A stretch of DNA of 39,846 nt from Escherichia coli. Lineage in GTDB: Bacteria; Pseudomonadota; Gammaproteobacteria; Enterobacterales; Enterobacteriaceae. This document shows, in pieces, positions 27,694-28,934 of this stretch. The stretch lies in the NCBI RefSeq assembly GCF_003334335.1, contig NZ_QOWQ01000039.1. The stretch is one strand, 5' to 3'. The notes below the pieces were generated by a model. It had not been told where the DNA came from. It searched no databases and was given only the letters and a program-made list of their open reading frames with translations. The position numbers were made by a program, and so were the translations under genes. How positions within the stretch are numbered: the stretch's first letter is position 1; each line of letters starts with the position of its first letter.

Positions 27694-27912
27694 AGTTAAT
27701 ACGCCTTGTGTATTCCTGACGGCAAAAATAAGAAATATAAAGAAATGATTGCTTTGGTTTCTTACAACACATCATTCCCTTTTCATTTAATAAAGCGGCA
27801 TGATACAAAGTGAACATGATTTCGATTTACATTGCCACCATACCGCTTCAGACAACCGGTACATTACTTTGTTATAAGACGTGATATATAATTCAAAACA
27901 ACGTGGTTTTGA

Positions 27913-28455
27913 TTATTCGTATCTCATAATAAAAGTCGCGTCAGCATTTGCTTGCCCTGCTGATGCACTTGTACCGGTGCCTTTATAACGTGCAGAAAAA
28001 TGAAGAACGTTGGTCCCGGGGATCAAGTTCTGGTTGGTTGAGAAGCTATTCCCATCAGGTTTGAGAATTGCGGATGTATTATCAAGTATTTCAATACCGA
28101 CACCCGTTGCTGTTGTTGTATTGGTACTGGATGCAATGGCCAATAAATTATCATTGATTGCATCAGCCTGACCAGAAAATGCAACGGCAGCATTAGCGGC
28201 AACAACAGGATCGCAGTCGTTCAACTGAATGGTGAATGGAATTAATGCAGAGGTATTACCAACAGCATTGAAAATATCGGTACGATATTGACCGAGTGTG
28301 ACAACTTGGTCTGCCGAGTCAGTATTCACTGAACAGGCAGCATTCACCAGTTCGCCTTCAAAGTGAATTGTACCGCCATCTACAACGGCAGCATAACTAC
28401 CCGTAGCGGCGAATAGTGCGGCAGCCAGCGCAGACGAAATAAATCTTAATTTCAT
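27913..28455 (-). CDS. sfmA: Type-1-like fimbrial major subunit SfmA (180 aa)
   Basis: ORF 27913..28488 trimmed to ATG at 28455 ([22 protein letters not shown] signal peptide); FimA-like pilin with conserved Cys pair. Confidence 0.88.
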
Positions 28456-28934
28456 ATATATTCCTTCAATCTCATTTATCGACTCCACATCCGTATATAA
28501 CCGATTACTTTATTTAAGACACTGATAGTAGTAAATTCCTTTTTATCCTCTAAGAATGTCTTAATTGAAAATATGCACTCTATTCTAAAAAATAGAGAGC
28601 CCCGTTAGATGAATACTTCCGCGCAAAATATATTCAACACAAATATAGACCTGAAGCGGTAAATTACCAGGCTGAAAATTCTTTTTATATTGTCAGGTAT
28701 TTCTTAAATTATCTTAATCCTTAGACAAGGAAATAAGTCAGTTCCAGATTTACAACGCCATCATGGACGAAAAATGAAGCTTTCAATCTCAGCGACCTCA
28801 GCGACGGTGCGCCTAACCTTCGCAAGAGGTCGCTTCACGTGATAAATCTGAAACGAAACCTGACAGCGCGCCCCGCTTCTGACAAAATAGGCGCATCCCC
28901 TTCGACCTACGTAACAGATGGAATCCTCTCTCTG

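Follow-up and report, generated by a model that had tools for sequence, protein, structure and literature searches.

The closest described counterpart of the control region of the sfm fimbrial operon in Escherichia coli, which lies between folD and sfmA, is the fimA promoter (PfimA) of Salmonella serovar Typhimurium, where a FimZ-binding region at −98 to −47, motif positions at −100 and −51, and Lrp and H-NS-like motifs have been described (PMC3203922). The fim 5′ untranslated region (5′UTR) of Salmonella is also reported to bind and titrate CsrA, according to the passages of PMC6844306 and PMC6527747 that cite Sterzenbach 2013. In E. coli, Panyukov and Ozoline (PMC3661553) listed the folD/sfmA intergenic region as promoter island 557105_351, scored it in their Table 1 as H-NS-bound from chromatin immunoprecipitation (ChIP) data (Kahramanoglou ChIP-seq and Oshima ChIP-chip), compared it with the Salmonella folD–fimA region, and remarked on the higher AT content and predicted H-NS modules of the E. 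coli DNA. Several cryptic chaperone–usher fimbrial operons of K-12 are repressed by H-NS, as stated in PMC3966885 with credit to Korea et al. 2010, and FimZ is said to induce the sfm pili genes of E. coli in a phosphorylation-dependent manner (Ogawa 2022, in the statements citing it in RegulonDB v12 and in a 2025 review; PMC10767902, PMC12471899). We analyzed this region, together with sfmA and the sfmA–sfmC spacer (positions 27694–28934), within a 39,846-nt stretch of E. coli DNA (contig NZ_QOWQ01000039.1), hereafter called the window. Our results make it probable that the sfm promoter and leader form an AT-rich block silenced by H-NS, with phosphorylated FimZ as an activator acting upstream, and that a short inverted repeat in the block, proposed in the original prediction as a candidate regulator site, has no operator role.

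Composition, repeat statistics, orthology and conservation were computed here, and the literature supplied the data on H-NS occupancy and activation by FimZ as well as the promoter map of Salmonella; the E. coli sfmA transcription start, the position of the FimZ operator and the mode of silencing are given below as we infer them.

Composition of the intergenic region and H-NS binding

The window is a segment of an E. coli chromosome, about 99% identical to K-12 MG1655. The gene order is cysS–ybcI–ybcJ–folD on one side of the intergenic region and sfmA–sfmC–sfmD–sfmH–sfmF, fimZ, argU on the other; sfmACDHF is orthologous to the fimAICDHF operon of Salmonella. The folD/sfmA intergenic region occupies 28456–28934 (479 bp), and this layout, with sfmA, sfmC, folD and the 219-bp spacer, is the one the original prediction had given. 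Over 27694–28934, only a few substitutions and one 9-bp tandem duplication separate the sequence from that of K-12.

27001–27693, minus strand: sfmC.
27694–27912, minus strand: sfmA–sfmC intercistronic spacer, 219 bp, 33.8% GC.
27913–28455, minus strand: sfmA coding sequence (major fimbrial subunit), 44.6% GC.
28456–28760, minus strand: putative AT-rich sfmA promoter and leader, 31.5% GC; coincides with the published H-NS-bound promoter island and is the ortholog of the AT-rich fimA-proximal region of Salmonella and Citrobacter.
28761–28850, no strand: spacer between the divergent promoters, GC-normal and poorly conserved, with the 9-bp tandem duplication of CTCAGCGAC at 28788–28805 that is absent in K-12.
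28851–28934, plus strand: predicted folD promoter and leader core, with −35 CTGACA at 28860–28865 and extended −10 TGaCAAAAT at 28880–28888 (promoter scan).
28935–29801, plus strand: folD, starting at 28935, divergent from sfmA.

The AT-richness is confined to part of the intergenic region. The 305 bp proximal to sfmA (28456–28760) have 31.5% GC and the sfmA–sfmC spacer has 33.8%, against 51.4% for the 174 bp proximal to folD (28761–28934), 54.8% for folD itself and a mean of 51.7% for the window. When GC content was computed in 300-bp windows over the entire 39.8 kb, the minima were found at windows starting at 28441 (29.7%) and 27641 (31%), and only 0.6% of these 300-bp windows reached values of 34% or lower. 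Both AT-rich stretches exceed the window at large two- to five-fold in their density of A/T tracts, of runs of at least eight A or T residues and of TpA steps, with A/T tracts and TpA steps enriched about twofold; TpA steps, for example, number 11.8 per 100 bp in the AT-rich DNA versus 4.5. Consequently, the earlier description of the whole ~480-bp upstream region and the spacer as AT-rich, with A/T tracts typical of H-NS nucleation sites, holds beyond chance for 28456–28760 and the spacer, tracts included, but not for 28761–28934.

When converted from its U00096.2 coordinates, promoter island 557105_351 corresponds to about 28435–28785 of the window, that is, to the AT-rich block. Because this block matches a published island scored as H-NS-bound, the idea that H-NS silences the sfm promoter region is supported, and it is already known rather than new. 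The same idea, advanced in the original prediction, is also backed by a near-consensus H-NS motif within the putative leader:

28473–28482, minus strand: TCGATAAATG, which agrees with the H-NS high-affinity motif TCGATAAATT at 9 of 10 positions; the 39.8 kb hold only three such one-mismatch sites.

Over the window as a whole the motif TCGATAAATT is not enriched (39 matches with up to two mismatches versus 42 expected). For the sfmA–sfmC spacer we found no published H-NS data, and the spacer does not appear in the island list of PMC3661553. The region is itself the folD/sfmA entry among the promoter islands of that paper, which are H-NS-bound, AT-rich and next to horizontally acquired or silent genes. 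It also resembles other H-NS-repressed cryptic fimbrial promoters, such as those of the K-12 operons (Korea et al. 2010) and of the F9 fimbriae (PMC3966885), in combining an AT-rich promoter with a poorly expressed fimbrial operon.

The sfmA promoter, FimZ and the ancestry of the locus

A scan for SfmA in one genome per species yielded 31 loci. Salmonella promoter features were projected onto E. coli through an alignment of 13 sequences (A2), consisting of E. coli and 12 orthologs. In S. enterica diarizonae, AAAATAAGA and ATTAAAAGA are 49 bp apart, a spacing that matches the −100 and −51 positions of PfimA (PMC3203922) and therefore places the Salmonella start 194 nt upstream of the fimA ATG. 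By projection, the E. coli sfmA start would be near 28639, with a leader of about 184 nt, and two upstream elements could be located:

28684–28726, minus strand: ortholog, by alignment A2, of the FimZ-footprinted Salmonella region (−98 to −47); contains TTAAGA-N4-TTAAGA and lacks 11 bp found in other genera.
28642–28647, minus strand: TATATT, resembling a −10 hexamer and placed by A2 no more than 2 nt from the −10 of Salmonella fimA (PMC3203922), hence a candidate −10.

The 11-bp gap in the FimZ-region homolog sets E. coli and E. albertii together apart from all other genera. It removes the TTCYTA half of a conserved TTCYTA-N8-TAAGAA, so that two direct TTAAGA units, 10 bp apart, remain. The regulator gene itself is intact in the window (446 bits for fimZ versus a cut-off of 271) and directly adjoins argU, as it does in K-12, with no fimY or fimW. 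Since FimZ is reported to induce the sfm pili, the sfm promoter cannot be regarded as dead.

Compared with PfimA, the E. coli region shares the orthologous position divergent from folD, an AT-rich block proximal to fimA, a conserved TAAGAA box and −10 region, and a long leader with one GGA near −37 and another within the Shine-Dalgarno sequence. It differs in lacking the 11 bp that hold the inverted TTCTTA half-site, in lacking fimY, fimW and fimI, in being slightly more AT-rich (31.5% vs 33% GC), and in carrying the inverted repeat, which has no Salmonella counterpart beyond a short CUC/GAG stem.

Taken as a whole, the explanation that we favor runs as follows. H-NS would bind the AT- and TpA-rich block 28456–28760 over both promoter and leader, keeping the operon silent in ordinary growth; these 305 bp would consist of the sfmA promoter and its leader of ~184 nt. 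Activation would be due to phosphorylated FimZ, whose gene stands at the opposite end of the cluster, acting at an operator that homology places at 28684–28726, upstream of a weak −35 and the TATATT −10. The folD-proximal third, comprising 28851–28934 and the variable spacer down to 28761, has normal GC content and carries the conserved folD promoter. The inverted repeat at 28578–28597 would be situated within the transcribed leader, serve no operator function of its own and form, at most, a local RNA hairpin. The sfmA–sfmC spacer would be nothing more than an AT-rich gap between two cistrons, with a weak stem-loop following sfmA.

Several points weigh against this explanation. The E. coli sfmA start is projected from Salmonella, we found no experimental start for it in the literature, and a strict promoter scan returned no sigma-70 site on the sfmA strand; moreover, many competing start sites are predicted at the promoter island (PMC3661553). 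H-NS occupancy is known to us second-hand, through the scoring of ChIP data in that same paper. Finally, the Salmonella fimA promoter is expressed despite being nearly as AT-rich (33% GC), so that AT content alone cannot explain why sfm is cryptic.

This last point leads to a different reading, in which the AT-richness is explained by the inherited composition of the promoter together with mutational decay and would not be what silences the operon, sfm being cryptic mainly because Escherichia has lost ancestral fim co-regulators and cis elements. Orthologous fimA-proximal regions are indeed AT-rich too (33–39% GC in Salmonella and Citrobacter). The gap shared by E. coli and E. albertii in the FimZ-region homolog, the direct junction of fimZ with argU and the lack of fimY and fimW, the absence of fimI and of a conserved hairpin after fimA, the removal of the whole cluster from 22% of complete E. 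coli genomes and the presence of IS1 in the promoter of some all fit such decay. Yet the region is scored as H-NS-bound from published ChIP data and FimZ reportedly still induces the sfm pili of E. coli, and we consider it unlikely that decay is the main reason for silence. Decay and H-NS silencing are compatible and do not exclude each other; it is plausible that the loss of co-activators and cis elements is a co-cause of the cryptic state.

The presence of folD divergently upstream of a fimA/sfmA ortholog in E. albertii, Salmonella, many Citrobacter, Kosakonia, Trabulsiella, Leclercia, Lelliottia and Phytobacter points to an arrangement ancestral in the Enterobacteriaceae and vertically inherited, and therefore not to a recent import from Salmonella into E. 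coli. In this respect our reading departs from PMC3661553, where sfmA was taken as alien DNA donated by Salmonella.

In 1201 of 5426 complete E. coli genomes (~22%), fimZ–sfmFHDCA and the AT-rich promoter are missing and only 28851–28934 is kept. In the retained folD core, E. coli has 86% identity to the 12 orthologs. Strain R4 has lost about 22077–28850 of the window, its deletion starting some 140 bp past argU and stopping 10 bp short of the folD −35. In this strain (locus L033, 5736–6084) about 270 bp separate argU and folD, and the flank on the argU side has just 88% identity to the window.

The inverted repeat and the sfmA leader

The inverted repeat was found at exactly the coordinates, 28578–28597, given in the original prediction:

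28575–28600, no strand: inverted repeat; perfect 7-6-7 form ctctatt-ctaaaa-aatagag at 28578–28597, and 10-nt arms with one mismatch over the full span.

The repeat is no more than chance gives. When the intergenic region was shuffled with its dinucleotide content preserved, perfect repeats with arms of at least 7 nt and loops of 3–10 nt arose in 19% of cases and the 10-nt form with one mismatch in 11%; 7-bp repeats of the same class occur 35 times in the window (0.88 per kb). In alignment A2 the 20-mer is 29% identical to the 12 orthologs, versus 41% for the whole AT-rich block, and the repeat is absent from all 12 orthologous folD–fimA regions, that of E. albertii included. Among 4223 sfm-positive E. 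coli genomes, 3765 contain the exact 30-mer bearing the repeat and 458 (~11%) differ; three variant genomes that were read represent two alleles (L034, and L035/L036), both of which alter the arms. By projection from Salmonella, the repeat would be located at about +42 to +61 of the ~184-nt leader, downstream of the promoter. Given chance-level occurrence, lack of conservation in orthologs, polymorphism within E. coli and a position downstream of the projected start, the proposal of a regulator site is not supported, and the accompanying caveat, that the repeat could equally be chance, is the better reading.

IS1 was seen in the AT-rich sfmA upstream block of at least two E. coli genomes, one of them NZ_CP026935.2. 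One of the insertions (L037) is exactly at 28575/28576, abutting the extended inverted repeat, and sfmA is gone there.

If the repeat had a function, it might be as an RNA element of the sfmA 5′ leader, a hairpin for mRNA stability, pausing or attenuation, possibly derived from a small hairpin of the ancestral leader. Read on the sfmA strand, the repeat would form a hairpin of −10.7 kcal/mol that is kept in the fold of the whole 200-nt leader and is followed by AUAUUUUC, and the natural allele L034 retains the stem through a G-U pair. At the aligned position in Salmonella and Citrobacter there is a short (U)ACUC-AGGR-GAG(UA) hairpin, whose CUC/GAG core is common to E. coli. These observations are offset by others: the leader as a whole folds no better than shuffles (z = −0.8), RNAalifold gave no conserved leader structure or covariation, the L035/L036 allele breaks a pair and lowers the stem to −7.5 kcal/mol, and the terminator scan made no call on the repeat. 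Choosing the segment for being a repeat biases its local z-score, and the alignment is uncertain in such an AT-rich, indel-rich stretch. We therefore hold an RNA function for the repeat to be doubtful. The repeat may be an AT-drifted remnant of the small ancestral hairpin, a reading to which we give low weight because the alignment is uncertain and covariation is lacking.

It is more improbable still that the repeat is a protein operator through which FimZ or another dimeric regulator controls sfmA. The dyad is a perfect one of 7 bp, and its 7-6-7 geometry is that of TTCTTAT-ATCCTA-ATAAGAA in the Salmonella FimZ region; on the sfmA strand the loop and downstream arm (TTTTAGAAT) are like the conserved TAAGAA box, and the AT-rich block of E. 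coli has a mild excess of TAAGA pentamers (5 vs 1.8 expected, P = 0.04 uncorrected). The pentamer clustering was noted post hoc and is absent in E. albertii, and we regard it as a weak lead only. As for the dyad, its arms agree with the Salmonella half-site in just 4 of 7 positions, chance alone would supply it with an expectation of 0.19, natural alleles break it, and neither E. albertii nor any other ortholog has it. By homology it is located at about +42 to +61 and not upstream of the −35; the orthologous FimZ region is 90–150 bp further upstream. The suggestion that FimZ binds the repeat is hence not borne out, the Salmonella FimZ footprint aligning to 28684–28726 instead, and the repeat should get no priority as an operator.

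Two further candidates were rejected. A repetitive extragenic palindromic element, a miniature inverted-repeat transposable element or an insertion sequence terminal repeat is ruled out because the 30-mer is single-copy in each of the 3765 genomes, meaning that the inverted repeat is not a repeated element, and an intrinsic terminator is not indicated, since there is no G+C-rich stem with an immediate U run.

The most conserved positions of the leader (A2) are two GGA motifs:

28487–28498, minus strand: AUAUACGGAUGU, with GGA at −37 invariant in 13 orthologs; CsrA-site-like.
28461–28466, minus strand: Shine-Dalgarno sequence AAGGAA, with GGA invariant in 13 orthologs.

Two invariant GGAs in the leader fit the CsrA binding that has been reported for the fim leader in Salmonella, and the E. 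coli sfm leader may bind CsrA as well. The two leaders are orthologous and share the GGA at −37 (ACGGAUGU vs ACAGGAUG) and that of the Shine-Dalgarno sequence. They differ at the position of the inverted repeat, where Citrobacter and Salmonella have a small hairpin with a loop of CsrA type (AGGA in Citrobacter, AGGG or AGGU in Salmonella) and E. coli has no GGA. In the E. coli leader GGA is not significantly enriched (6 vs 4.1 expected in dinucleotide shuffles, P = 0.14), and RNAalifold, applied to the final ~130 nt of the leader, gave a trivial six-pair stem only, with no covariation and no conserved hairpins.

A second, imperfect inverted repeat was observed in the putative sfmA leader, at 28509–28569, with 20-nt arms that are 75% complementary. 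It encloses two GGA motifs (AGAGGAU and AAAGGAA) and a TAAGA-CAT-TCTTA palindrome, and is the largest helix of the predicted leader fold.

The sfmA–sfmC spacer, flanking features and significance

Immediately downstream of sfmA, the spacer contains one feature of possible note:

27893–27912, minus strand: weak stem-loop UCAAAAC-CACGUU-GUUUUGA directly after the sfmA stop, −5.9 kcal/mol, z = −2.1; a possible weak attenuator.

Neither this hairpin nor the inverted repeat was called as an intrinsic terminator or attenuator by the terminator scan, and both stems (−5.9 and −10.7 kcal/mol) are A-U rich. The stem-loop is not homologous to the GC-rich hairpin that follows fimA in other genera, and E. 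coli and E. albertii lack the latter, with its conserved GGA loop. Outside Escherichia that hairpin, GCCUCA-nGGAn-UGAGGC, is conserved within the first ~80 nt after the stop and is flanked on both sides by (A/G)GGAUG motifs; hairpin and repeats together have the look of clustered CsrA-type sites. A U run comes after the post-fimA stem in Leclercia and Lelliottia, which makes the stem terminator-like there.

In Salmonella, Citrobacter, Kosakonia, Lelliottia and Phytobacter the interval between fimA and fimC holds fimI, a second FimA-like gene, which is absent from E. coli, E. albertii, Leclercia and Trabulsiella. A tblastn search of the spacer with four FimI proteins gave a best E-value of 0.19, so that no fimI remnant is detectable. 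Genomic SELEX (systematic evolution of ligands by exponential enrichment) with sigma-32 RNA polymerase has given peaks between sfmA and sfmC (U00096.2 557960, about 27930 of the window) and within sfmD (PMC5493296); the former hints at an affinity of RNA polymerase for the AT-rich spacer, nothing more. A permissive E-value search of Rfam 15 over 27000–29600 returned only chance-level eukaryotic matches, none near gathering scores, and small open reading frames in both non-coding stretches included nothing conserved or notable.

In the spacer between the divergent promoters, the CTCAGCGAC-CTCAGCGAC duplication forms a perfect 9-bp inverted repeat with GAGGTCGCT at 28826–28834. At the far end of the sfm cluster, argU (21861–21937) is followed directly by an EnvY-like AraC-family gene (21054–21815), ybcH and nfrA (19981–21937 being the stretch considered), and K-12 similarity ends at 21859. 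Because the EnvY-like gene adjoins argU directly, the DLP12 prophage, found at argU in K-12, is absent from the window and from this strain.

Overall, the observation from which we started is partly confirmed, and it is ordinary and was known before: an H-NS-bound promoter island has been described at this very region and the control of sfm by FimZ has been investigated in E. coli, which leaves little significance beyond annotation. What is added here is a map of the parts of the intergenic region that belong to folD and to sfmA, a placing by homology of the sfmA promoter, start and FimZ region, grounds for not ranking the inverted repeat as a leading operator candidate, and an argument that the locus is ancestral to the Enterobacteriaceae and not a recent import from Salmonella. 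A more speculative possibility, to which we assign a low probability, is that the sfm control region is a decaying copy of an ancestral enterobacterial fim control, through the 11-bp deletion of a FimZ half-site, the drift of a leader hairpin toward AT to give the inverted repeat, the loss of fimI and the loss of the post-fimA hairpin. If true, these four changes would document an erosion of regulation preceding the outright deletion of the cluster in 22% of E. coli genomes.

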